Source of the DNA: a virus
Lineage: Duplodnaviria; Heunggongvirae; Uroviricota; Caudoviricetes
DNA: 48,822 nt
IMG/VR virus record: IMGVR_UViG_2541047788_000006
Reading direction: 5' to 3' (one strand)
The translations under genes were made by a program, and so were the position numbers. Of the stretch, positions 2,304 through 40,224 are shown one piece after another. Within the stretch, counting starts at the first letter, position 1, and every line of letters begins with the position of its first letter. The notes beneath the pieces were generated by a model, which saw only the letters and a program-made list of their open reading frames with translations, was not told the DNA's origin and made no database searches.

Positions 2304-3076
2304 TATAATAAACTTACTTTTTTATCATTTTTCCACTTTAACAACATTTTGCTCCACTTTTCCACGACCAAACAACTTGAAATCTGGTTAAAATAACACG
2401 CAACACTATTCTTCTTCCTTGAGTCCGCCCGGAACTCGAAAAACAAACCGAGTTAAAGCCATTTTTCACAAAATCGATTTTGGGTCTCACCAAAATTACG
2501 GGGTTGCATACGCATTCGTTTATTTTCGAACGTGTACATACAAATATGTACAAAAATAATCAAAATTATTTTCTGAGATGCATTATGATATGAACACCAA
2601 TTTCGTATAGAATCTCACTATGTCTCGAATTTTTGCTTACTGTCGGATATCAACGCTGGATCAGACCACCGAAAATCAACGCCGGGAAATCGAAAGTGCA
2701 GGTTTTAAAATCAAACCTCAGCAAATAATCGAAGAACACATTAGCGGCTCAGCAGCAACCAGTGAGCGTCCTGGTTTTAACCGGTTGCTTGCTCGCCTGA
2801 AATGTGGTGATCAATTGATTGTGACAAAACTGGATCGCCTTGGTTGTAATGCAATGGATATCAGGAAAACAGTGGAACAACTGACCGAAACAGGTATCAG
2901 AGTGCATTGCTTAGCATTGGGGGGCATTGACCTGACCAGTCCAACAGGAAAAATGATGATGCAAGTAATTTCAGCAGTCGCTGAATTTGAACGAGACCTT
3001 TTACTTGAACGCACTCATTCCGGGATAGTAAGAGCCCGCGGCGCAGGGAAACGTTTTGGTCGACCACCTGTGTTAA

Positions 3077-4271
<1,195 letters not shown>

Positions 4272-4506
4272 TTAAATGAAGAACAGAAACAGGTGGTATT
4301 CGAACGAATTAAGTCAGGTGTAAGTATAAGTGCCATTGCCCGGGAATTCAAAACCTCGCGGCAAACCATTTTAAGAGCCAAAGCAAAACTTCAGACACCT
4401 GACATATAAAAAATAATCTCGGTGTGAGATGCTTTACGTCTTCCAAGCCCCCTTCCTTGCCGTAAATGGAAAGATACATCTAATTATAGAATTTATATGT
4501 TTTACC

Positions 4507-5082
4507 CTACGGCAGTGCTGGCCATTCAATATCCTGTGCAGTTGACGTATCAACACGGTTCAGCAATACCCGATACTTTTTCCATGCTTCCAGCAACGAG
4601 ATTTCTTCCTCCGTTGCAATTTCCAGATCTGCAGCATCCTGAAGCGGCGCAATATGCTCACTGGCTACCTGCATCAGGTTGTTTTTTGTTTCTTCCGCCT
4701 CCCGGATCCGGAACAGTTTTTCTGCTTCCGTATCCTTCACCCAGGCTGTGCCGTTCCACTTCTGAAACTCCCCTTCCGGGGATAACCAGGTGACATTTTC
4801 CGGTAATGGGCCAAGTTCAGAAATAAATAACGCGTCGCCGGAAGCCACGTCATAGACGGTTTTACCCCGATGATCTTCAACGAGATGCCACGATGCCTCA
4901 TCACTGTTGAAAACAGCCACGAAGCCAGCCGGAATATCTGGCGGTGCAATATCGGTACTGTTTGCTGGCAGACCTGTATGAGGCGGAATATATGCGTCAC
5001 CTTCACCAATAAATTCATTAGTTCCTGCCAGCAGATTATAAATTTTTATGGTCCGTGGTTGTTCACTCATTCTGAATGCCAT
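4507..5082 (-). CDS. tfa: tail fiber assembly protein (Tfa)
   Basis: 191-aa ORF with the Tfa-family N-terminus ([35 protein letters not shown]); immediately downstream of stf. Its first ATG overlaps the stf stop (TAATG), with an alternative ATG at 5070. Confidence 0.85.
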
Positions 5083-7997
5083 TATGCAAGCCTCACAATG
5101 TAGTTAAATGCGATGTTTTTGACAGTGTTTTCCGCGTTACCAGCAGCGTTAACGGTGATGGTGTGTCCATGTGAGCCAATCGCAACAGAGTGCGTATGAG
5201 CACCAATACCGACAGTATGTGCGTGAGCACCTGCAGATGCAGCTGTGCCGCTGACACTATGAGTGTGCGCTCCTGCAGCACTTGTATTCACACTGGCCGC
5301 AGACACTACCTTATGTACTGACCCATTTTGTGACCACTGGCTGACTGCTGATGCGCCTGTGACACTATGAGTATGGTTTCCGGCACTTGCGGCTGTACCG
5401 CTCACACTGTGCGTATGCGCCCCGGTGTTATTCGTGGATTTAGTGCCGTAATCAAACGACGATGTGGTTTTCGTCCCCAAATCCGTACTGGATGCACTGG
5501 CGCTGTGGGTGTGCGATTTAATGCCGTCCTGTTCCTGAGACAATACGGCCCGACCACTGGCAGGTTTGCCCTTAATCGTCCAGCCACGCATATCAGGGAT
5601 CACGCCTGACGGATAAGCGGTTGCAAGTTTCGGGTAAGCGGATTTGTCAAAAGTCTGCCCCTGCATCAGGGCATAACCAGACGGAACGGTATCTGATGGC
5701 CACGGGATTGGTGCGCCAGGCGGATAAAACTGCTCTGATGGCGTATAGAGTGAATAAACTGTACCGTCCGTTAACCCTTCCGGCTTATTAGCAGAATATG
5801 CTGGTGACGTATGAATAGTCACGCTGGCATTACTGGTATAATCCCATTGAATATTTACACCAGTCGCATAATTTCCGATTGCAACGTAAATATCGTAAGT
5901 ATCACCAGATGTATTGACCCAGGCAAAATTTGTAAACCCTGTCGATGTGCGCTGCCATAAAGCACCAGTAATCCCCTTCGGATTACCATTACCTGCACGC
6001 AAAACAAGTTCAGATATACCTGCCTGTTGAGGTGACCCCACGTTAAATCCCGCGCCACCAATCAACGTAATTGAAACAACAGAACTCGCCTGTGGCATGG
6101 TTACCGTTGCTAATTTGAACCAACCAGCACCACCGCTGAATGACATTGTTGTTGAGTTAAGCGTACCAATATCTTTCGGCGTCAGTGTTATATCCGCTGA
6201 AAGCGCCTTACCATTCACCTTACGGGCAGAAGGTACCCGACCATTCGCATTATCATTAGCTGCTTTCACTGCTTTCGGTGTCGCGGCAAGCGTTTCAGAT
6301 GCGCTGTTGGTTGCACTACTGAGCTGGACAATTCCTTTTTGTGCTGTCGTAGCGTCCTGAGCAGTATATTTCCCGTTAGCAAGGTCATAGGCTGCCTTTA
6401 CCGACTTTGGCGTTGCCGCCAGCATTTCAGATGTGCTGTTGGTCGCGCTGCTGAGCTGAACTATCCCTTTTTGTGCTGTCGTTGCATCCTGTGCGGTGTA
6501 TTTCCCGTTAGCCAGCTCATACGCGGCCTTAACGGCTTTTGGCGTTGCCGCCAGTGACTCGGAAGTGCTGTTAGTCGCACTGCTGAGCTGTACTATCCCC
6601 TTTTTCGTCGTGCTCGCATCCTCAAGCGCCACGGCGGATGCAATATCCTCTGCCCGTTTTGCCGCTGTCTCGGCGCGCGTTGCCGCGGATTCCGCCGTAC
6701 TTTTGCTCTGAGCTGCCGCCGTCGCACTGCCAGCTGCCTCTGTCGCCTTCGTGGATGCCGTCGTGGCGCTGCCCTTTGCTGCTGACGCCTGTCTGGTCGC
6801 CTCATCTTTTGAAGCAGACGCAGATGATGCCGATGACGCCGCCGAACTGGCGGACGATGCGGCAGCCGTTTTTGAGGATTCTGCGCTGGTTTCCGACGCT
6901 TTCGCGTTCGTCTCGGATGTCTTCGCTGCGGAAGCAGACCTCGCTGCTGCGCTGGCCTGTTCAGTGGCTTCGCCAGCCTTCGTTGTGGCTGTTGAAGCGG
7001 ACGATGCGGCGCTTTCTGCCGATTTTCCGGCAGCGGTGGCACTGGCTGAGGCCTGCCCGGCACTTGTTGACGCGGCACTGGCAGACGACGCAGCCGCTGT
7101 TTTTGAGCCTGCCGCAGCTGAGGCGCTCTGTCCCGCTGCCGTCTCAGAAGACCTGGCGTTCGTCTCGGACGTTTTTGCCGCCTTCGCGGAATTTGCTGCC
7201 GCCGTTGCCGAGGAAGCTGCGCTACTGGCGCTCGAGGATGCGTTCGTTTCTGATGATTTTGCCGCCTCTTTTGAAGCCGACGCATCCCGGGCTGAGGTGG
7301 CAGCTTCTGACGCTTTCGTGGTCGCGGTGGATGCAGAAGTGGCGGCTGATTGTTGTGACGCTGCAGCATTCGTTTCTGACGTTTTCGCGGCAGCGGCACT
7401 GGTAGCTGCCGCGCTTTTTGAGGACTCTGCAGCGGCAGCACTTTTTTCCGCTTCAGTGGCCTTTGTTGATGCCGTTCCTGCGCTGGAAGACGCTGACTGA
7501 GCCGACGAAGCGGCCTGTCCGGCTGACGTGCTGGCTGCACGTGCTGAATCTGCAGCATCAGTCGCATGGGTTGCCGCCTCACGGGCAGATGTGCCGGCAT
7601 CACTGGCTGACTTCTTCGCGGCTGCCGTGTTCTGTGCCACCACGGACGCGTTACGCGCCACCTCTTCCACCATCTGTTCAAAACGGCGCAGTGCCTCCGG
7701 ACGGGCATCATCCTCCGTCATGGCACCGAGAAAATCATTCAGCGTACCGGGTTGAGAATCTTCATACACGGTGATGGTCCCGGCATGTGACGGCGGGAAT
7801 CCTTCCACCAACAGAATAACGCTGTACTGCCCGTACTCAACGTCCATGCTGTAACGCCCGGCTTCATCCGGATTTTCTGAGGCCAGCGTGTTCACCACCA
7901 CCGTGGTGCTGTTACGTTTTGCTTTCAGCTGGATTGTGCAGTTCTGTACCGGTTTTCCTGTGCCGTCTTTCAGTACACCTGAAATCTTTACTGCCAT
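5082..7997 (-). CDS. stf: side tail fiber protein (Stf)
   Basis: N-terminus [26 protein letters not shown] resembles lambda Stf; long Ala/Ser/Thr-rich segment, three 44-aa tandem repeats and C-terminal His-x-His repeats. Start taken at ATG 7997 (the ORF track begins at the upstream GTG 8003). Confidence 0.9.
6250..6700. repeat. three in-frame tandem 132-bp repeats inside stf
   Basis: Repeat units begin at 6301, 6433 and 6565 (period 132 bp) and encode the 44-aa unit [44 protein letters not shown] three times. Confidence 0.75.
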
Positions 7998-8007
7998 ATT
8001 CACCCCA

Positions 8008-20082: not shown

Positions 20083-20358
20083 TTACTCAATAAAGATCAT
20101 TGGCTTACCGTTAAAACGTTCATGCCGTGTGACCGTCCATTGTTGTCCGTCATAAACAACGCGATCCCCGCGCCGTGGGCGGTATCCCGAAGAAAACACC
20201 ACCAGAGAGACCGCAGGTCCGGACAGAGCATTCAGCTCTGCCAGTGTTTCTCCCGGGATCACAGTCATATCGACATCATTAATCGAGGCTGTCTTTCCCA
20301 TCTTTCTGACCGTGATAGCATCCATACGCGCTGCCAGCCGGGAAAAGGGATCAGACAT
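20083..20358 (-). CDS. head-tail connector / tail attachment protein (FII-like position)
   Basis: 91-aa ORF between the head module and Z; assignment by position only. Confidence 0.5.
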   Translation of the reverse strand: MSDPFSRLAARMDAITVRKMGKTASINDVDMTVIPGETLAELNALSGPAVSLVVFSSGYRPRRGDRVVYDGQQWTVTRHERFNGKPMIFIE

Positions 20359-20674
20359 TGAGTTTTACCGGCACTTCTTCTGCACTGGTTCCGGCATCTG
20401 CCCAGACAACCCCGACCAGCGGATCAGAGCCGCTGTTAGTCAGCTGAACTTTTCCGGACTTCAGATAAACCTTCTTACCCGTTTTCATGTCATCCGTTTT
20501 CAGCTTAGGCAGCATAAACACACCTTCGGTCATGCCGTCGCCTGTTTCACCCTGTGGAATATCGGTCAGCGCCACCGCAAAAACATCGCCCACCTGCACC
20601 AGATCTCCGCTGCTGATGGCTGCACTGGCAACAATCGCCACCGTTTTTCCTTCTTCTACAAAATTCTTTGCCAT
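20351..20674 (-). CDS. small head-associated protein (DUF2190-like), function unknown
   Basis: ORF 20351..20719; likely start MAKNFVEEGKTV; immediately downstream of the capsid gene. Confidence 0.45.
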   Translation of the reverse strand: MAKNFVEEGKTVAIVASAAISSGDLVQVGDVFAVALTDIPQGETGDGMTEGVFMLPKLKTDDMKTGKKVYLKSGKVQLTNSGSDPLVGVVWADAGTSAEEVPVKLNV

Positions 20675-20760
20675 AACTGTCTCCGCACAGCCCCGTTCAG
20701 GGGCTGATTTCAGGTACAAAAAAAGCCCTTACGGGCCATCAGAGTTGTTGTCTGCGACGT

Positions 20761-22719
20761 TTACGCCGTACATTTCACCAGACCGCGGTGATCAACTGGC
20801 GCGACACCGGCGTCAATACGCACTTTCGTTGTCACGCCATCCACACTGAAGCCCTCCATCTGATCAATATATGGCGTATCCACACCGTTGAGATAAGCCA
20901 CTTCAATCGTATCGGAGCCTTTTGACGCAGCCAGGTAGAAGGTGGTCTGGCTGTTATCATCAAGACGAGGCTCTGCAATAACGGTCGCAAAATCTTTCAC
21001 CGGGTTAATAATACCGGCGTTAATGTCAGCCCCCTTGACACTTGAGGAGCGAATGACCTGGTTAGCAACAGACTCCATCGCCGTCGGTACCAGTACGAAC
21101 GCAGGACGAATATTCAGATGACGCTCCCCCTCTTTCTGAACGCGCATCAACTGGCGGGCTTTATCCAGCGATGCCACGTCCATTGCAGCGCTCTCCAGTA
21201 CGTTTGCATGTTTCGCTTTATCGAACAGACTTACATTATCTGTGGAGATTTTCGGGTTAGACGTCAGAATGGCATAAACCAGATCGGCAATAGTGGATTT
21301 CGCCGCACGGCCCAGTTTCATCGGGACATCGGTCAGCATATTCAGATCATCATTGATAATGGCCTGACGGGTGATACTGAACAGCTCGCCATAGGTCGCC
21401 AGTGCAATAGTGGCCTGTTTATCTCCGGTGGTGACGTATTTATATTCCGCCCCTTCACGCACCTGACGTAGAGCACTGAAGCCCCCCATACCCACACGAT
21501 GGGCAATTTTAAAATCAGACAACTGACCTTTCCGCGTCCACTGTTCATAGGTTTCAGGGGCATCTTCCCAGCCCTGCAGAATGGCTTTGTTCGCAACATC
21601 CAGCAGAATATTACCGAAGTCAGACGTACTGTGTGTGAACGCCGCACCGACCATCTGCATCGGGTTATAACCGGAAACCCCAATACCCCGTTCAGTTAGT
21701 GACATACGGGCATATTCACGCAGGGTCATCCCGTTGTAGACATTATCACGTTCGGTTTTTTCAAATCCGGCACGCGCCATCAGCGCCTGGCGAATCCCGT
21801 CCCCCACAAAATTACCGTTACCGGCATAAATATGAGCCGGGGTATTTTTATTGGATGGCGTGGACTCGCGCCCCATCTCGTTCAACAGCTTTTCACGGGC
21901 CTGCTCCAGCGAACATTCAGGATCGGCAAGACACTGGGCCTGCAGCGTCTGATAACGCCCGCCAAACATGGCAAACAGATCATTAATACCGTTTACACGC
22001 GCTTTTTGCTCTGCCAGTACCTGCGCACGGATACTGTTTTCATCCACCACGGGTGCTGCTGCCTGCACTGGCGTCCGGGAGGCTGCAGGTTCATCATCCT
22101 GTACGCGTGGAGCACTGTTGCGTGGCGGAGTAATCATGTTTCGAATGGATTCCGGCATCTTTTTAAATTCCTCTGTACGTTTTGACTGAATACATGCCAT
22201 TGCCTTAACGGCTGGTGTCACCTGATCAGCAAATCCCTGTGCCAGACATTCGGCACCGGACATCCAGGTCTCATCCGCCAGCATGGCAGCAATTTCATCG
22301 GTGGTTTTCCCGGTTTTCTGTGCATAAGCGGGTAACAGAACCGCCTCAACTTTATCGAGCAGGTCGGCATAGGTGCGCATGTCCTCCGCATCACCGCCCG
22401 TAAAGCCAAATGGTTTATGAATCATCATGAAGGAGTTTTCCGGCATAATGACCGGGTTTCCCACCATCGCAATGACCGACGCCATTGACGCCGCCACACC
22501 GTCGACATAAACGGTAATGGACGCACCATGTGTTTTCAGTGCATTAAAAATGGCGATGCCTTCAAAGACATCGCCACCCGGTGAATTAATATGGAGATTA
22601 ATGTGGGTGATATCGCCCAGTGCATTCAGATCACTGATAAACTGCTTCGCTGTAACACCCCAGAAACCAATCTCGTCATAAATATAAATATCCGCGTCAC
22701 TCTGGTGACCTGCCTGCAT
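20761..22719 (-). CDS. prohead protease (ClpP/S49-like) fused to major capsid protein
   Basis: N-terminal ClpP-like segment (IYIYDEIGFWGV...INSPGGDVFEGIAIFNAL...MASVIAMVG) followed by ~450 aa capsid-like region; start set at MQAGHQ (ATG 22719), overlapping the portal end by 14 nt; the ORF track's upstream extension overlaps portal and is unlikely coding. Confidence 0.75.
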   Translation of the reverse strand: MQAGHQSDADIYIYDEIGFWGVTAKQFISDLNALGDITHINLHINSPGGDVFEGIAIFNALKTHGASITVYVDGVAASMASVIAMVGNPVIMPENSFMMIHKPFGFTGGDAEDMRTYADLLDKVEAVLLPAYAQKTGKTTDEIAAMLADETWMSGAECLAQGFADQVTPAVKAMACIQSKRTEEFKKMPESIRNMITPPRNSAPRVQDDEPAASRTPVQAAAPVVDENSIRAQVLAEQKARVNGINDLFAMFGGRYQTLQAQCLADPECSLEQAREKLLNEMGRESTPSNKNTPAHIYAGNGNFVGDGIRQALMARAGFEKTERDNVYNGMTLREYARMSLTERGIGVSGYNPMQMVGAAFTHSTSDFGNILLDVANKAILQGWEDAPETYEQWTRKGQLSDFKIAHRVGMGGFSALRQVREGAEYKYVTTGDKQATIALATYGELFSITRQAIINDDLNMLTDVPMKLGRAAKSTIADLVYAILTSNPKISTDNVSLFDKAKHANVLESAAMDVASLDKARQLMRVQKEGERHLNIRPAFVLVPTAMESVANQVIRSSSVKGADINAGIINPVKDFATVIAEPRLDDNSQTTFYLAASKGSDTIEVAYLNGVDTPYIDQMEGFSVDGVTTKVRIDAGVAPVDHRGLVKCTA

Positions 22720-22732
22720 CCTGAACCAGGAA

Positions 22733-24241
22733 TTATTCTTCGGACTGGTCGTCGGTGTGCTGCGGCTCCTGTCGTTTCGTTGCGGCACTGCTGCCTCCTT
22801 TATCACTGGCCGGATCGGTATCAAATACCAGATCCAGCTTGCGGTTTTCATCAATTTCGGCCTTGCGCCGACGTTTGACATCATCCGGATTACGACCACC
22901 TGCACGTACCCAGTCTGATTCTGTCGCCGCTCCACCACGAATCTGAATTTTCCAGGCCTCAGCCTCCTTAACAGGGTCAATCCACGGCATCACCGGTCCG
23001 GAATACACCGCGGTATACAGTGAAGAACGATCAAGATCGCGGGGTAGCCTGATAACACCGGATGCCACAGCCTGTTTCAGCCAGGCACGATACATCGGGC
23101 GGGTGACGGCACCAATAAACCAGTCCTGCAGGATCAGGTAGCCATCAGTGGATTCAACCAGCTCCTGACGCTGGGCGCTGTAAGTGCCGTTATAGTTGCG
23201 TGCCGTACTGGAAAAACTCAGACGACTGCCCGCCGCCACGGCACGCAACTGACCATTACGAAAAGTTTCAAGGTTAGGATTGGGACGATCCGACTTCACC
23301 ATTCCGATTTCTTCGCCGGGTTTCAGATCGTCGTAAATAATGCCTGGCTGAATGGTAAGCTCGCGTTCATTCTCCTTGCTGCCATTACCATCCGGTTCAT
23401 AGCTCTGCCCGTCGCCTTTCCGGATGTACATCCCCAGAGCAGCGGCGATCCTTGCTGCAGTCAGCTCAGAATCTTCATACTCTTTCAGGGCACTGAGGCG
23501 GATCAGCACACCGGACAACAAAGACGTCCCGCGCATCTGGTGCAGACGGCGAACAAATTTAAGATGCAGCATTCGCTCTGCATCCACTTCTTTGGTTTCC
23601 ATCTGCCGCCCGGATACGGGACGGCTTTTATACACCAGATATTTTTCGGGACGCCCCCAGTCATCAACAAACACGCCCTGATTCAGCCTGTTGCTCTCAT
23701 CACTGGTCATGGGAATAAAGTCCGGCTCGAGCGCCTCCAGCCAGAAATGAACACCGGCAGAAGGCGTCAGGCTGTTTATGCGCCCGGAAACCATCTGGGC
23801 AAACACCTCACCATCGCGCAGCCAGGTACGCAGCATCAGACGTTCCAGCATCGGACGGGTAAACTGCCCGGTGACTTCCGGACTGACAGACCATTCACTC
23901 CATCGGGTGCGTATCTCCGCTGCCAGATCACGGGCAATGGCCCCATTGCGTAATACCGGATGTGGCTCGACAATAATCCCGTTTTTCCCCACCACCCGTT
24001 CTTCCAGCTTGTCAAATACACCAATAACCAGATCGTGGTTGTTATCAAGGTAACGGGCCTGCTCACGTAACGACACGGCCCCGTACTGGCTTAACTGGTC
24101 GGCAGTTCGGTTTTCCCGCCGGGCTTTGTGTGTCCGTGTCGTTTTTACGGCCTCATAAGCCTGGATCACCGCACGGGAACGCAGCCTTGCCGCTTTCCAT
24201 CCTGGTGAAAAAACGCCAATCACATCATCAAGAATTGCCAT
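22733..24241 (-). CDS. portal protein
   Basis: ~500-aa protein directly downstream of W-like and terL; acidic C-terminus; start set at MAILDDVIG, whose ATG overlaps the W stop by one nucleotide. Confidence 0.85.
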   Translation of the reverse strand: MAILDDVIGVFSPGWKAARLRSRAVIQAYEAVKTTRTHKARRENRTADQLSQYGAVSLREQARYLDNNHDLVIGVFDKLEERVVGKNGIIVEPHPVLRNGAIARDLAAEIRTRWSEWSVSPEVTGQFTRPMLERLMLRTWLRDGEVFAQMVSGRINSLTPSAGVHFWLEALEPDFIPMTSDESNRLNQGVFVDDWGRPEKYLVYKSRPVSGRQMETKEVDAERMLHLKFVRRLHQMRGTSLLSGVLIRLSALKEYEDSELTAARIAAALGMYIRKGDGQSYEPDGNGSKENERELTIQPGIIYDDLKPGEEIGMVKSDRPNPNLETFRNGQLRAVAAGSRLSFSSTARNYNGTYSAQRQELVESTDGYLILQDWFIGAVTRPMYRAWLKQAVASGVIRLPRDLDRSSLYTAVYSGPVMPWIDPVKEAEAWKIQIRGGAATESDWVRAGGRNPDDVKRRRKAEIDENRKLDLVFDTDPASDKGGSSAATKRQEPQHTDDQSEE

Positions 24242-24459
24242 CAGAACCTCGCCAGCCGGTACCCGGGATGCCCCCGTCGTCGTGTAATCAGAGCCGCAAG
24301 GCGGCGCTCCCACTCCTGCCGTCCCTGCCGGATCTCAGATAAGTTTTCCATGGTCATCTGCTGACCATTAAAGGTGACGGATTTTCCGTCCAGCACCGCC
24401 ATTTCAGCTTCCGTATAACGCTGAATCATGGCTTCGATATCATTCTGGTTCATAACCAT
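24241..24459 (-). CDS. gpW-like head-tail joining protein
   Basis: 72 aa; C-terminal ...RRRGHPGY resembles the lambda gpW C-terminus (...RRRGPAGFYV) as recalled; located between terL and portal as in lambda. Confidence 0.6.
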   Translation of the reverse strand: MVMNQNDIEAMIQRYTEAEMAVLDGKSVTFNGQQMTMENLSEIRQGRQEWERRLAALITRRRGHPGYRLARF

Positions 24460-27815: not shown

Positions 27816-28115
27816 TTTGTCGCTCCATGCGTTTGCTCGTCATCTAGCGGTTAAAATATTACTTCAAATCTTACTGCATAAAAGAGGAAAAGTATGAAAG
27901 TTTGAGTACATCGACCTTACATACATCTGTCGGTTGCATATCCCTCCTGGATGCCAGCAAGGCTCAATTTTGTTACGCAATCAACACTATTCATTAAAAA
28001 CAGGCTTAATATTTGACATAAATCATCAACAAAACACAAAGAGGTCAGACCAGATTAAAACAATAAACACGATAATGCAAACTACGCGCCATCGTATCAC
28101 ATGGAAGGTTTACCA

Positions 28116-28526
28116 ATGGCTCAGGCTGCCATTTTTAAAGAAATATTCGATCAAGTGCGTAAAGATTTAAACTGTGAATTATTTTATTCTGAGCTAAAAC
28201 GTCACAATATCTCACTTTATATTTACTATTTAGCCACAGATAATATTCACATTGTGTTAGAAAACGACAACATAGTGTTAGTAAAAGGACTCAAAAAGGT
28301 TGTAAATGTTAAATTCTCCAGAAACAAACATCTTATAGAGACCTCCTATAATAAGTTGAAATCAAAAGAAATCACATTTCAACAATACAGGGAAAATCTT
28401 GCTAAAGCAGGAGTTTTCCGATGGGTTACAAATATCCAGGAACACCAAAGATATTACTATGCCTTTGATAACTCATTACTATTTACTGAAAGCATCCAGA
28501 AAACTACACAGATCTTACCACGCTAA
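28116..28526 (+). CDS. ydfO: YdfO-like protein (DUF1398-type)
   Basis: Start at [31 protein letters not shown], matching the remembered YdfO N-terminus; plus strand, opposite to neighbours. Confidence 0.7.
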
Positions 28527-28677
28527 ACCATAACGTCCGGCTTCTCTCACTCCTGAGCCGGACTGCATTGGTTTAATAAAAACCATCAACAATTGTGATT
28601 TAGATATTCGGAACCATTCAAATATAACAAAACCCCGTAAAAACGAGGTTTATGGATAAATTTTATTATTGAATACA

Positions 28678-28851
28678 TCAGATTAAATTAATCTTGACAT
28701 CATAGCTTTCAAGACCCGTCATTTTTTCCCGTGCGGTAAACTGAATACTGGTAACTTCTTTCCCGGTCTTTTTCTTAAGTTCAATAATTTTTTTTGTTAT
28801 ATATTCAGAAATATCTGCTTCTGCTTTTGTTTTTAAGTTTTCAATATTCAT
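28678..28851 (-). CDS. gnsB: GnsB-like small protein
   Basis: 57-aa ORF (below the ORF-track cutoff) MNIENLKTKAEADISEYITKKIIELKKKTGKEVTSIQFTAREKMTGLESYDVKINLI; GAGGAA ribosome-binding site upstream; resembles GnsA/GnsB as recalled. Confidence 0.7.
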   Translation of the reverse strand: MNIENLKTKAEADISEYITKKIIELKKKTGKEVTSIQFTAREKMTGLESYDVKINLI

Positions 28852-29022
28852 CATTTCCTCTTTTAGTCTGTTATGACTTTCCAGTTACACAGTAAGTCGA
28901 TTATATGGTGCAAACGTGTAAAAGATAAGATGAAACATCGCAATAATCAACATACGATAGTCTAAATTTTACACAAACAGACAAAGAGAATTTTCCTGAA
29001 TTATCAATACAATAGCATCAAA

Positions 29023-29253
29023 TCAACTCAAGAGCCTTATTGCTGCTTCCAGAATTTCTTCTGAAGTAACATGTCGATCCGCGGCTACATAAATGACTTT
29101 ATGATCTCCGGTCAGAGATGGAAACCCTGCGGCCATTACAGTAAGGTGTGTTTTTTCGCCATTTGGATATTCACGCATGATGGTGTTAACTCCAGTCATC
29201 GCTGGCACTACCACTGCTGGTTCAGAGTTAAAAAAAACTATGATTTTTTTCAT
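29023..29253 (-). CDS. ynfN: small prophage protein YnfN-like
   Basis: ORF 29023..29295; likely start MKKIIVFFNSEPAVVVPAMTG; symbol by Qin gene order next to cspI. Confidence 0.45.
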   Translation of the reverse strand: MKKIIVFFNSEPAVVVPAMTGVNTIMREYPNGEKTHLTVMAAGFPSLTGDHKVIYVAADRHVTSEEILEAAIRLLS

Positions 29254-29295
29254 GATGTTACCGTAGTATGTGAGTATCCATCGAATAGATACCAA

Positions 29296-29320
29296 GCAAA
29301 AAAGCTCCCGAAGGAGCCTT
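29296..29320 (-). terminator. rho-independent terminator (minus strand)
   Basis: Minus-strand stem GCTCC / GGAGC with loop TTCG followed by UUUUUUG; lies downstream of cspI and upstream of ynfN. Confidence 0.5.
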
Positions 29321-29524
29321 CATTTTCACTTTTTTAAATCCAACGACAGACGGCTGGCATTTAAGTATTGTGAAATATTATCAAATGTAATCATCATTGA
29401 TTTACAAAAGATACATTTTGCCCCGAAAGGATTCATGTCAGAAACATCAAAAGATGATGTTCTATACTGGGAACCATGACAACACGGGCATCTAAAGTGA
29501 ATATGGTTTGTAATATTGTCTACC

Positions 29525-29737
29525 TCAAAGCGCCACTACATGAACAGCGGCAGGACCTTTAGGTCCGTTCTCAATACCAAATTCAACTTCCTGATTCTCA
29601 GTTAATGTTTTGAAATCGTTGCTCTGAATTGCTGAGAAATGGACAAACACATCTTTGCTGCCATCTTTCGGCGTGATGAAACCAAAACCTTTTTCAGGGT
29701 TAAACCATTTCACTAAACCAGTCATTTTGTTAGACAT
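29525..29737 (-). CDS. cspI: cold shock protein CspI
   Basis: 70 aa [38 protein letters not shown]... with RNP1/RNP2 motifs; long AT-rich 5' leader (29738..30100) typical of cold-shock genes. Confidence 0.9.
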
Positions 29738-30100
29738 AATTATTACCTTTTGAAGAAATTAGCCCTTGGGCAGAATGGTCCGAAAAAAAATATCAGAGAG
29801 AAAAACCAACAAGGAAATCTCAAGAGGTACAAATAATAAAATTATAACAATGACTGCTTCAGATAAATTTGTAACAAACCAGAACACCATTAACGCATGA
29901 TTAACCACCCATAGCAAGGATTACTTTTGTAAAGAAAAACACAGCAATGAAAGAATAGCTTTATTTATTAATAATAACGTGTCATTCTGATTAAGACCTT
30001 TTATCTTACCCTTAAGATTTCAGGAATTTTGGCTCATGGAAGAGTCCTTTTTATTTAAATTTTACATTCCGCGATGTAAATGTTCCGATTTAATATTACC

Positions 30101-32409: not shown

Positions 32410-32625
32410 TTAATCAGTAATGATGACATTTGCTGCTGCAGGACCTTTAGCACCACTCTCTATAGAGAAGGTAACCTTTTGACCTTCAAATAAGGTTCGA
32501 TAATTATCATTCTGAATCGCAGAAAAATGCACAAACACATCTTTACTACCATCAACAGGAGAAATAAAGCCGAAACCTTTATCAGCGTTAAACCATTTTA
32601 CTAAACCAGTCATTTTATTTGACAT
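32410..32625 (-). CDS. cspB: cold shock protein CspB
   Basis: 71 aa [67 protein letters not shown]... Confidence 0.9.
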
Positions 32626-36345: not shown

Positions 36346-37467
36346 AGCCTGCTTCTCCTTGCCTTTCGGCTCGTAAGAGGCTAACCTACATGTGTCTAGC
36401 ATGAAATTGGCCTCAGATTAATGTTAAGCGTCTTGCAGGACGCGTAATGTTAACTGGGGCTTTTCTCTATCTGCCTTTGGTGTTCATGCCCGAGGCAGAT
36501 AGCCTCAAGCACCCGCAGCCATTCTACTTAACTACCGTTACCTCGCCAATATGAAATCAGTCAGAAAGGCGATCCATAAGAACAATAGCAAGACAATAAA
36601 TCGCCATTACAGCCGTAATAGCCAGCGCACATTTGAGAACCAGCACCACAACCTCCTGTATTGGACGTAGACCAGTCCTGATGAATATGAGGCTGTCTCG
36701 TCAGTGATTCAATACAACTATTGGGTATAGTTTCTCTGATTTTTTCTGTGGAAATGGGGCACAACCACTAGTCACCACCAGCACTTCTTTTAATACGCAA
36801 AGTCCGACACAAGCTAACCTTCTAGTCCGCTTTGAGCGAAAAACAGCCATAATTTAGTGCCACGTATATAATGATAGAGCTATTCAAGCTAGCAATTCAC
36901 ATGTAAAAATTCAGAGGGTAGAAGCACATAGTTATAAATGTTGGCTCCATCGACAAATTGCGGTCTCAAGTACATTTATTAATGTTGCCCCCGCATTAAC
37001 AAATCATCAAGGTGACGACATGGACGATATTAATATCAGCCTCGACGAACTTAACACTATTGATTTATCCCCCTTAATCCAGAGTAAGCTGCCAGTTACC
37101 TGCTTTGATATCACAAAGTATCTTTCTAGCCTAGGTGATGGAAGAGCGGAGATAAGACTGCTAACCCATATTTGCGGTTTTCACTTTCGTCCCGAAAATC
37201 CACAGGTACCATTTGGTCCGTGCTTTCAAAGCAGCCAAGGTAGATCTGCAATTCCGGATGACATTAACGGGTTGTCGCTGGAGGTACTTTCTCAATTTTG
37301 CCCGACGATAGAGCTACCCGAACTTCAAGCTCGTATTGCTGATACACTTTGGGTTCGTAAAATTGGTGGAATCCGTTTTCCTTTGCTGGCAGTCCGTGCT
37401 TATTATGCGTCCAGTATAGCTATTATGACATCGCAAGGGACGTGGGTTAGTGCTTTAGAACGCCTAG

Positions 37468-38662
<1,195 letters not shown>

Positions 38663-40224
38663 CTAGAGCGTGCGCTTAGGCTGTGTTGTTTTTTTCGAAA
38701 GAATACTGATTTCAGGGATGAATTTGATCAGCTTTCGGCACATCTACTAGCAGAGTATGAACGTACCAGAGAACAAGGCGATTCACCTTATCCGCTGCGA
38801 CTCCTGCAACTCGATATCGACTGTAAAGTGAGTGAGCCATCTTTTATTGCCCAGGAACTCCTGTTTCTGACAAAAAACTATCTGGCTCAAAAATTATTTT
38901 CATTTGCCGTCGATGCCTGTAAAACCGCAATCACGATTGCGAATAGGTGCTGTGACAGAGATACACAGTTTGAATTCTGGCGGCTTCTTGCCGATACACA
39001 TCTGGAAGAGTCAAAATTCCAAGATGGCGGTATGATTTCGGCAGCCTGCATGCAGAATGCTATTGAAGCACTGGCTAATATTCCAGGAACCCGAATAGAA
39101 CGTCTTGCGCTGTATGAAGAAATGCGTGATTACCAAATCGAATCCCGTCACCAGATGTCTATCCTTCAGTCTCCCCCTCAAGATATTAGTGAGATTGTCC
39201 ATCAAGCCAAGAGTCGGGTAGTCGGAAGAGATATGTTTGATATGGTTTTCAGACTTGCGATGCTGGTCTGTCGGCCAACCAGCATTGAGAGACTTAAGGC
39301 TCAAGCAATAGAACAAAAGGCCAACAGCATAGCTTGGATGTTTGGATCAACACATATTGATCATGAGGGAATGACACTTGCTCGCATACCCGCAGGATTG
39401 GGGATTGATGATGCAAATGGGGCAGTTATTTGGCCCATAATGATGACGAGAATGCGTATCGACCATGAGTTGGCAGTAGCTGGGCAAATTATTCCTGCTA
39501 CAGATGAGATCACAATGAAATATCCAATCTCGGAGGCGTTTTTTCGCGATATGTTCATCAATCATCCCTTCATCCCGTTTGGGCATGAAGAGTTTTTCAT
39601 CAAGGGTATGGTTTGCGGTTTCAATGGAGATTTTATGACGGCATGCCACGTGTTGATTCCCCAGATCGAAAATAGTCTGAGATATGTGGCTAAAATTAAA
39701 GGTGAGGAACCATCGCAGCTTCACGGGGACGGTTCGCAAGAGCGAAATGGACTCAAGGGATTACTAGATAATCCACTGATTATTGAAGCTTTCGGCGTAG
39801 ACATAATTGGCAATCTTCAGGCCTTACTGGTAGATAAAATCTATGGTGATTTACGAAATCAACTAGCTCACGGATATGTGCCTGCCGGTTACTACAATCA
39901 ACCTCCCTGCATTTTTGCATGGTGGCTTGTATTGCACATTCTAATGAACCCTACGGCGAGATACTGGCAAGCCACTTATGGCCAAGAGAGTGAGGCTCAG
40001 ACTTAAAGTGAATAAGTTTACGAAGTTGGCACTTCCGGATGCATGTCCATATGAGTTGAGGCGATTTGGTTAATAAGGTTGAGTGCTGCTGAAATTATTC
40101 GATGTCCGCTTTTGGCACAAAGCGGACAACCACGCCAGATCTACCCTGTGCCATGAAAAATGAGAATGTCAATTCACTCCTGAACTAATGCTTTTTAATC
40201 TAGTAACGTCTAAAATACCTAACA

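Follow-up and report, generated by a model that had tools for sequence, protein, structure and literature searches.

A Gifsy-2-type protease, scaffold and major capsid fusion gene in a lambdoid prophage, with a predicted GTG start and a candidate internal start

The closest described relative of the gene treated here is the 'tripartite capsid gene' STM1034.3n of the phage Gifsy-2, which is said to have been the subject of a study by Effantin and co-workers in Virology in 2010 (402:355). The architecture of such genes has long been known and is very common in enterobacterial and Pseudomonas prophages. As far as the available parts of the literature go, the Gifsy-2 gene is described simply as a fusion of a protease and a coat protein; the Gifsy-2 capsid is listed as T=7 (PMC8814770), and Gifsy-2 is counted among those phages whose three-fold axes carry a trimeric cement protein (PMC8538268). 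Papers citing the 2010 study also give the Gifsy-2 capsid protein as cleaved, its precursor being processed by its own protease. Here, a gene of this type was analyzed on the minus strand of the IMG/VR record IMGVR_UViG_2541047788_000006, a stretch of 48,822 nucleotides (nt) which is referred to in its full length as the window. The gene at 20761-22788 belongs to a lambdoid prophage of the cdtI/mEp460 type and can be identified with very high confidence as the tripartite capsid gene known from Gifsy-2, and its translation is predicted with high confidence to start at GTG 22788. Furthermore, a conserved Shine-Dalgarno sequence (SD) followed by an ATG at the junction of the protease and the scaffold-like region suggests, with a probability that we put slightly above even, that this 'fusion' gene comprises two nested in-frame genes and also yields a protease-less scaffold-capsid product of 465 amino acids (aa) from ATG 22158. 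The parts of the gene are as follows (residues in 675-aa numbering).

20761 to 22788, minus strand: coding sequence (CDS) of the protease-scaffold-major capsid fusion, 675 aa, 73.5 kDa, from the predicted start GTG 22788 to the stop codon at 20763-20761; assigned by NF045540, the identity to Gifsy-2 and RefSeq WP_001136587.1
22204 to 22731, minus strand: ClpP-like (MEROPS S14-type) prohead protease domain, residues 20-195; assigned by Pfam CLP_protease, NF045542 and PDB ClpP
22488-22486, 22419-22417 and 22272-22270, minus strand: codons of the catalytic residues Ser101 and His124, and of Glu173 at the position of the ClpP Asp
22042 to 22203, minus strand: junction and linker, residues 196-249; a short conserved helix (…SKRTEEFKKMPESIRNMI), then a Pro/Ala/Thr/Gln-rich tether of variable length
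22156 to 22173, minus strand: candidate internal start, with GAGGA at 22173-22169, 10 nt, and the ATG of codon 211 at 22158-22156
21811 to 22041, minus strand: helical scaffold-like (Delta-domain-like) region, residues 250-326, from the AlphaFold model of residues 195-675
20764 to 21810, minus strand: HK97-fold major capsid protein region, residues 327-675, ~38 kDa, with the Phage_capsid_4 core at residues 377-672 (nt 20773-21660)

The minus-strand open reading frame (ORF) 20761-22980, which comprises 739 codons from the first TTG, is uninterrupted, and both functional halves were found in the same frame. On the maximal ORF, Pfam CLP_protease (PF00574) was matched by the protease half at ORF residues 95-255 (E 3.4e-36) and Phage_capsid_4 at ORF residues 441-736 (E 8e-55). 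The NCBIfam model NF045540 (ClpP-like prohead protease/major capsid protein fusion protein) gave 986 bits compared to a curated cutoff of 475, with a match that spans query residues 9-651 and profile positions 2-651 of 652, and the PHROG 133 profile (668 positions) was matched collinearly from end to end. Since the fusion protein is collinear with both full-length profiles, no frameshift is needed or hidden. The DNA at 20300-24400 is 99% identical to that of the phages cdtI, mEp460, Ayreon, Tritos and others, and the protein shows 69% identity to Gifsy-2 STM1034.3n across 668 aligned residues. An identical protein is deposited in RefSeq as WP_001136587.1, named as a ClpP-like protease/major capsid fusion, and the gene occurs under the RefSeq name in 2,125 of 5,426 complete E. 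coli genomes (~39%). Thousands of fusion homologues were found in Enterobacterales, Pseudomonas, Shewanella and other groups. A previous sequence-only reading of this stretch had placed a protease and a capsid-sized region in frame on one polypeptide of ~650 aa. The single polypeptide is borne out by the two Pfam matches, whereas its length of 652 aa gives way to 675 aa, as favored by the start at GTG 22788. The arrangement is not unusual; it is an architecture that is already known and forms an NCBI-curated family with an experimentally studied orthologue, Gifsy-2.

The predicted product from codon 211 would have a mass of 50.7 kDa and would comprise linker, scaffold and capsid without the protease. 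The conservation of the candidate start was determined in 78 non-identical gammaproteobacterial homologues (48-99% identical). While the ATG at codon 211 is present in 78/78 and the AGGA in 77/78 of them, the most informative position is codon 206, at which the third base is a G in 78/78 although the encoded residue varies (Glu 49, Lys 15, Gln 14). Among the 25 columns with at least 90% Glu/Lys/Gln, codon 206 is the only one that is xAG to 100%, compared to a mean of 0.50, and no codon-context bias was found that would explain this G. The mRNA around the site is also exceptional. In the 56 homologues with <90% identity, codons 203-216 are the least-structured part of the gene, with a minimum free energy in 45 nt of ~-4 compared to -9.8±2.0 kcal/mol (z ~+3), and the structure is even lower than at the annotated start. 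It lies below that of the respective synonymous shuffles in 71-86% of the homologues, compared to 32-57% at control positions, and in the window itself the site reaches the 98th percentile of unstructured windows. The internal ATG together with a GAGGAG is also found in Gifsy-2.

The same arrangement extends beyond the direct homologues. In the sister family NF045541, a Met occupies the same alignment column in 95/97 sequences, and at the level of DNA all nine loci (9/9) carry an SD (GAGG, AGGA or GGAG) 4-7 nt before the ATG, with differing encoded residues; these junction sites lie at the 91st-100th percentile of unstructured windows. Among the representatives of 50%-identity clusters, residue 211 can be Ala, Val, Ile, Pro or Thr, so that the internal start first looked weak. 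In the lineages without Met211, a Met and SD-coding residues sit further into the linker. In 41 distant fusions, an in-frame linker ATG was counted as qualifying at an SD pairing of -5.4 kcal/mol or stronger, a spacing of 4-10 nt and at least the 85th percentile of unstructured windows. By these criteria, 28/74 linker ATGs qualified compared to 10/681 at other positions, which corresponds to an odds ratio of 41 (Fisher p 6.5e-23, without correction for shared ancestry). The linker motif [EKGRQ][EDG]-x(2-4)-M was present in 76/118 cluster representatives, compared to 22 expected by shuffling. In addition, gene callers sometimes give stand-alone proteins of 443-471 aa which start exactly at the junction Met. 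In several assemblies of one lineage of Ralstonia phages, the protease is separated from the scaffold-capsid part by a deletion of 2 nt immediately 5' of the internal SD, so that the latter part would be translatable only from the internal ATG.

The main rival to the nested product is that only the full-length 675-aa polyprotein from GTG 22788 is made and that the AGGA-N10-ATG serves another purpose, for which a Met required by the protein itself, a pause at the SD-like sequence aiding the co-translational folding of the protease, or a relic of separate genes have to be considered. We give this explanation a real but minority chance. It would agree with the description of the Gifsy-2 gene as a simple fusion in the parts of the literature available, and with the conservation of Pro212 and Phe208 as residues in the wider family, which points to a protein-level constraint on the stretch, too. 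It also draws on two properties of the site which open the list of points weighing against our own interpretation. The internal SD in the window is modest (-6.0 kcal/mol) at a longish spacing of 9-10 nt, and the low mRNA structure can largely be attributed to the Lys/Glu-rich composition. Further points on this side are the phylogenetic relatedness of the homologues, due to which the p-values overstate independence, the 13/41 distant fusions without a qualifying linker ATG, and the split variant, which might reflect a faulty assembly or a dead prophage. The same applies to residues 250-326, which are without a family match, and to the AlphaFold model of the full-length protein (28-sequence alignment), which is poor (pLDDT, the predicted local distance difference test, of 48). 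On the other hand, a relic would not account for a third base at codon 206 that is fixed while the residue changes, or for an SD and ATG that recur with non-conserved residues in the sister family and in fusions of only 31-48% identity. A pause site would need no ATG at a fixed distance, and variants split exactly at the junction exist. Altogether, we regard a Gifsy-2-type tripartite gene read from GTG 22788, with a nested product from codon 211, as the probable overall explanation.

In the literature searched, which did not extend to the original Gifsy-2 paper, no description of an internal start in protease-capsid fusions was found; the original paper may already have considered it. The internal start signal is the only part of these findings that might be new.

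For the beginning of the full-length protein, public records disagree and give fusion lengths of 652, 675 and 707 aa. The comparative evidence supports 675 aa and centers on the following two elements.

22794 to 22800, minus strand: Shine-Dalgarno sequence AAGGAGG, 5 nt before GTG 22788, within the Lys-Gly-Gly codons at the 3' end of the portal gene
22733 to 22788, minus strand: overlap of the portal gene 3' end (portal CDS 22733-24241) with the fusion gene 5' end, 56 nt, in different frames

The calculated duplex with the anti-SD at GTG 22788 amounts to -11.6 kcal/mol, which belongs to the top 1% of windows in the gene, compared to -2.6 kcal/mol at ATG 22719. The SD arrangement at GTG 22788 is kept in mEp213 and in an Stx2d phage, and most enterobacterial loci show a strong-SD GTG or ATG start ~19-24 codons before an invariant Trp. 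A Pseudomonas phage has GGAGG, 5 nt and an ATG, with the SD likewise hidden in portal Gly-Gly codons. For an E. coli chromosome whose DNA is 100% identical here, the RefSeq CDS is exactly 20761-22788, and most NCBI records use GTG 22788. With this start, the fusion gene encodes 675 aa and overlaps the portal gene by the 56 nt given above, and of the maximal ORF no more than the first 64 codons remain untranslated.

The sequence-only reading had instead placed the start at ATG 22719 (MQAGHQ…, 652 aa), which would turn the stretch between the portal stop and this ATG into an untranslated spacer and leave the first 87 ORF codons untranslated rather than 64. This ATG lies 14 nt past the portal stop, so that re-initiation is conceivable; it is annotated in some GenBank phage records, e.g. 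Ayreon with 652 aa, and the NF045540 profile has a length of exactly 652 positions. Nonetheless, the choice of ATG 22719 is very probably wrong, and we consider a start there very unlikely. The residues 2-23 of the 675-aa form (PQRNDRSRSTPTTSPKNNSWFR) include Ser20-Trp21, which are encoded upstream of this ATG and do not vary in 29 aligned fusions, those of Pseudomonas and Gifsy-2 among them, and distant relatives begin 2-10 residues before a corresponding W-[YF] at their N-terminus, e.g. MKKWYDIKA and MSKKSWFHMQ. Across lineages, the 14 nt of the supposed spacer show either TCN or AGY as the Ser codon and either AGG or CGN as that of Arg23. Such synonymous switches of the codon family indicate selection at the level of protein. 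In contrast, the Met itself (Met24) is replaced by Ile, Leu or Phe in Gifsy-2, in Pseudomonas phages and in about half of the family. Residues 23-26 were modeled as a beta-strand of the protease domain in the full-length model, which lends weak support given its low to moderate confidence at this point. A 5-bp hairpin UCCUGGUUCAGGA is located at 22719-22731 (minus strand), directly 5' of ATG 22719; it would sequester the adjacent AGGA, which comprises the only SD-like bases of this ATG.

As a further candidate, the upstream ATG-ATG at ORF codons 33-34 (nt 22884-22879), which gives the 707 aa annotated in phage Tritos, was rejected. Compared to GTG 22788, its SD is weaker (-6.6 vs -11.6 kcal/mol) and its spacing longer (9 vs 4 nt). 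The two ATGs can be explained as a by-product of conserved Asp-Asp codons of the portal gene, and the distant relatives start, as described, 2-10 residues before the Trp.

The N-terminal domain of the fusion protein was matched by NF045542 (ClpP-related head maturation protease) with 217 bits compared to a cutoff of 120. In a single-sequence search against the PDB, the N-terminus matched only ClpP chains (E 8e-16), in an alignment that pairs the AASM and MIH(K/Q)P motifs, and no match was obtained for the capsid half. Ser101 and His124 correspond to the catalytic residues of ClpP and are invariant in 50 distant relatives (34-52% identical). The position of the ClpP Asp is taken by Glu173, which is invariant in the gamma clade of the sequence alignment. 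Since the scores lie far below the cutoffs of the equivalogs for cellular ClpP (e.g. TIGR00493 with 60 vs 308.6 bits), the domain is ClpP-like and not a ClpP. No Pfam match to S49 was found at E <0.01, the matches being limited to the ClpP, SDH and NfeD-type families of the ClpP fold; the sole relative of the S49 family was a weak match to an SppA domain in NCBIfam, far under its cutoff.

The part following the protease was modeled with AlphaFold2 for residues 195-675, using a 97-sequence alignment, and reached a mean pLDDT of 82.5. The linker varies in length and sequence across the aligned fusions, and the tether (~220-249) is disordered in the model (pLDDT <50 at model residues 26-51). It is followed by three helices (~250-308; model residues 56-79, 86-94 and 100-114, pLDDT 94-97) ahead of the HK97-fold core, and then by a flexible but conserved segment (~309-326, …TPSNKNTPAHIYAGNGN) with disorder at model residues 119-128. 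For the middle of the protein, residues 195-376, no significant Pfam match was obtained. Residues 250-326 may serve as a scaffold-like domain of the Delta-domain kind. The segment ~309-326 would be a plausible zone for the maturation cleavage. For the C-terminal part, a Foldseek search of the PDB with the same model returned encapsulins and phage capsid proteins with a probability of 1.0, and a sequence profile search matched solved Mu-GpT-domain capsid proteins (E 4e-10); a Pfam match to PF10124, the Mu gpT family, was obtained as well. Accordingly, the capsid identity that the sequence-only reading had assigned to the C-terminal half is confirmed. For the Delta-domain or scaffold-like linker that this reading proposed to look for, the three-helix region is a candidate, with no family match over residues 195-376.

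That the fusion is an artefact, i.e. two genes with an overlooked frameshift or sequencing error, or that the C-terminal half is no capsid protein, is extremely improbable in spite of the rare split versions in the sister family, as the HK97 fold is confirmed, the frame is intact in the window, in >2,000 E. coli genomes, in 80 genome-contig loci and in 80 viral contigs, and of the top 150 representatives from clustering at 50% identity, >100 show one continuous alignment over both domains.

Based on these data, a model of head assembly can be proposed. Translation would start at GTG 22788, with the SD inside the last portal codons, and produce the 675-aa polyprotein, in which a ClpP-like serine protease at the N-terminus is connected by a flexible tether rich in Pro and Ala to a small scaffold-like domain of helices and, beyond it, to the HK97-fold capsid domain at the C-terminus. 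A second in-frame initiation at GAGGA-N10-ATG (codon 211) would probably give the 465-aa subunit. Most of the shell would then be built from these short, HK97-gp5-like subunits, while a fraction of full-length subunits would carry the protease inside. If the nested product is used, the full-length protease form need not be present once per capsid subunit. Around the portal, the capsid domains are assumed to assemble into a T=7 procapsid shell that keeps the scaffold and the protease tethered on its inner side, after which the protease would remove everything N-terminal of the capsid domain. The shell would expand during DNA packaging, and trimers of the DUF2190 'cement' protein would stabilize the mature head. 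In this model, we infer where the precursor is cleaved, that residues 250-326 act as a scaffold, and that translation also initiates internally.

A practical consequence concerns annotation. Since the fusion gene is often named 'Clp protease', automated finders of capsid proteins can miss it; one published pipeline recovered no capsid protein for Gifsy-2 (PMC8814770). If the internal start is functional, each member of a very large class of 'protease-capsid fusion' genes would encode two products. This would explain how the dosage of the protease is controlled and how such phages avoid one protease per capsid subunit. The strategies of lambda (C/Nu3) and HK97 (Delta-capsid) would be united in one gene, and the nested design would be common to the ClpP-type fusions, the sister family with another protease and distant viral relatives.

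The fusion gene is embedded in a late operon of lambdoid order, consisting of the small and large terminase genes, a gpW-like gene, a lambda-family portal gene, the fusion gene, a DUF2190/Phage_cement_2 decoration gene and FII/Z/U/V-like genes. Directly downstream of the fusion gene, two elements were found.

20714 to 20737, minus strand: terminator-like GC hairpin GGCCCGTAAGGGC followed by a T-run, between the capsid and decoration genes; annotated as a terminator in phage Ayreon
20351 to 20674, minus strand: gene of the head decoration ('cement') protein, DUF2190/Phage_cement_2, 107 aa; Pfam PF09956 (E 1.4e-20), PHROG 122 'head decoration'

Unless overridden by Q antitermination, the hairpin might adjust the amount of capsid transcript relative to that of the transcripts downstream. 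The decoration gene starts at ATG 20674 with a GGAG upstream, its RefSeq CDS comprises 324 nt, and its product is 61% identical to the Gifsy-2 counterpart. Upstream of the fusion gene, the maximal portal ORF 22733-24313 (minus strand) comprises 526 aa from a GTG and exceeds the likely gene; the RefSeq portal starts at ATG 24241 and has 502 aa (MAILDDV…).

The window represents an integrated prophage, with the gene of a host MFS (major facilitator superfamily) transporter at the left end and an integrase at the right end. Within the prophage, two copies of a 1,201-nt element, at 3074-4274 and 37465-38665, are 100% identical and lie in inverted orientation at a distance of 33 kb. Each encodes a 338-aa DDE transposase (DDE_Tnp_1 and DUF772), and we take them to be IS5-like insertion sequences (IS). 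The inverted copies could invert the segment between them, and given their presence the prophage may be defective. An ORF of a serine recombinase/invertase at 2620-3114 (plus strand), with the N-terminal domain of the Resolvase family, adjoins genes for a tail fiber and tail-fiber assembly. As the left IS copy begins at 3074 within the 3' end of this ORF, the ORF looks truncated and apparently is without the C-terminal DNA-binding domain. The position beside the tail-fiber genes suggests a disabled switch for tail-fiber inversion. The tail-fiber ORF at 5082-8003 (minus strand, 973 aa) contains three tandem repeats of 132 nt (44 aa) at 6241-6636, which are Phage_fiber_2 repeats with 77% and 62% identity of copies 2 and 3 to copy 1. 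Between the terminase and lysis genes, the GC content at 28000-30000 drops to 0.35, compared to ~0.5 elsewhere, and a DUF1398 ORF lies at 28101-28526 on the opposite strand (plus); this stretch looks like a moron or cargo insertion. The lysis region is flanked by a direct repeat of 200 nt at 29538-29737 and 32426-32625 (73% identity, 2.9 kb apart).

Among the known systems, Gifsy-2 shows the closest agreement with the window. The order of protease, linker, scaffold-like region and capsid domain is the same, with 69% identity over the whole length, and the surroundings likewise comprise a terminase, a gpW-like gene, a lambda-family portal that overlaps the start of the gene, a DUF2190 decoration gene and lambda-like Z/U/V tail genes. 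The differences comprise an N-terminal extension before Ser-Trp which is unlike that of the window in sequence and length, an Ile in place of Met24 and a longer linker, resulting in 696 aa compared to 675 aa in total.

A more distant likeness is found in NF045541, the widespread sister family from Ralstonia, Burkholderiales and others ('prohead protease/major capsid protein fusion protein'). Its scaffold-capsid portion is homologous (28-35% identical; match region at residues 197-649 of the 652-aa form starting at ATG 22719), and both the order of portal, fusion and cement genes and the junction Met with an SD are the same. The window protein scores 402 bits, under the family cutoff of 525, and the N-terminal protease of NF045541 is another domain which is not ClpP-like; one member is named 'peptidase U35' in its source. 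With a differing protease in front of a homologous scaffold-capsid module, the proteases seem to have been exchanged while the capsid module was retained. In two loci of this family (L179 and L180), the loss of 2 nt has left two overlapping genes in place of the fusion.

In HK97, a scaffold function is fused N-terminally to an HK97-fold capsid and removed by a phage protease; according to the model, the same would hold for the window protein. The predicted 465-aa internal product would be a direct analogue of gp5. The HK97 protease gp4, however, is encoded by a separate gene and belongs to another family (U35/S78). Furthermore, HK97 uses a covalent chainmail, whereas the cement protein gene of the window suggests a non-covalent stabilization of the capsid.

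Nested in-frame products of protease-scaffold and scaffold are known from phage Mu (I/Z) and from herpesvirus (UL26/UL26.5), in both of which the capsid protein is encoded by a separate gene. The capsid family of Mu gpT is the one matched by the window protein (PF10124; Mu-GpT capsids E 4e-10).

For lambda, the sequence-only reading had contrasted the fusion with the separate or nested genes C, Nu3 and E. The single fused gene of the window holds, but the contrast is probably overstated, because the conserved internal SD and ATG suggest nesting here, too. If the internal start is used, the window would share with lambda C/Nu3 the nested in-frame arrangement of a long form with the protease and a short form with the scaffold; at present, this likeness is one of sequence signals, namely an in-frame internal ribosome binding site and start codon for a protease-less product. 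Common to both is also a decoration gene of the trimeric type after the capsid gene. The lambda protease gpC belongs to the S49 family, whereas that of the window is S14 ClpP-like and without a Pfam S49 match. In addition, the capsid protein of the window is of the Mu-gpT/Phage_capsid_4 type and is covalently joined to the scaffold, compared to the separate gene E in lambda, and its decoration protein belongs to DUF2190 and not to the gpD family.

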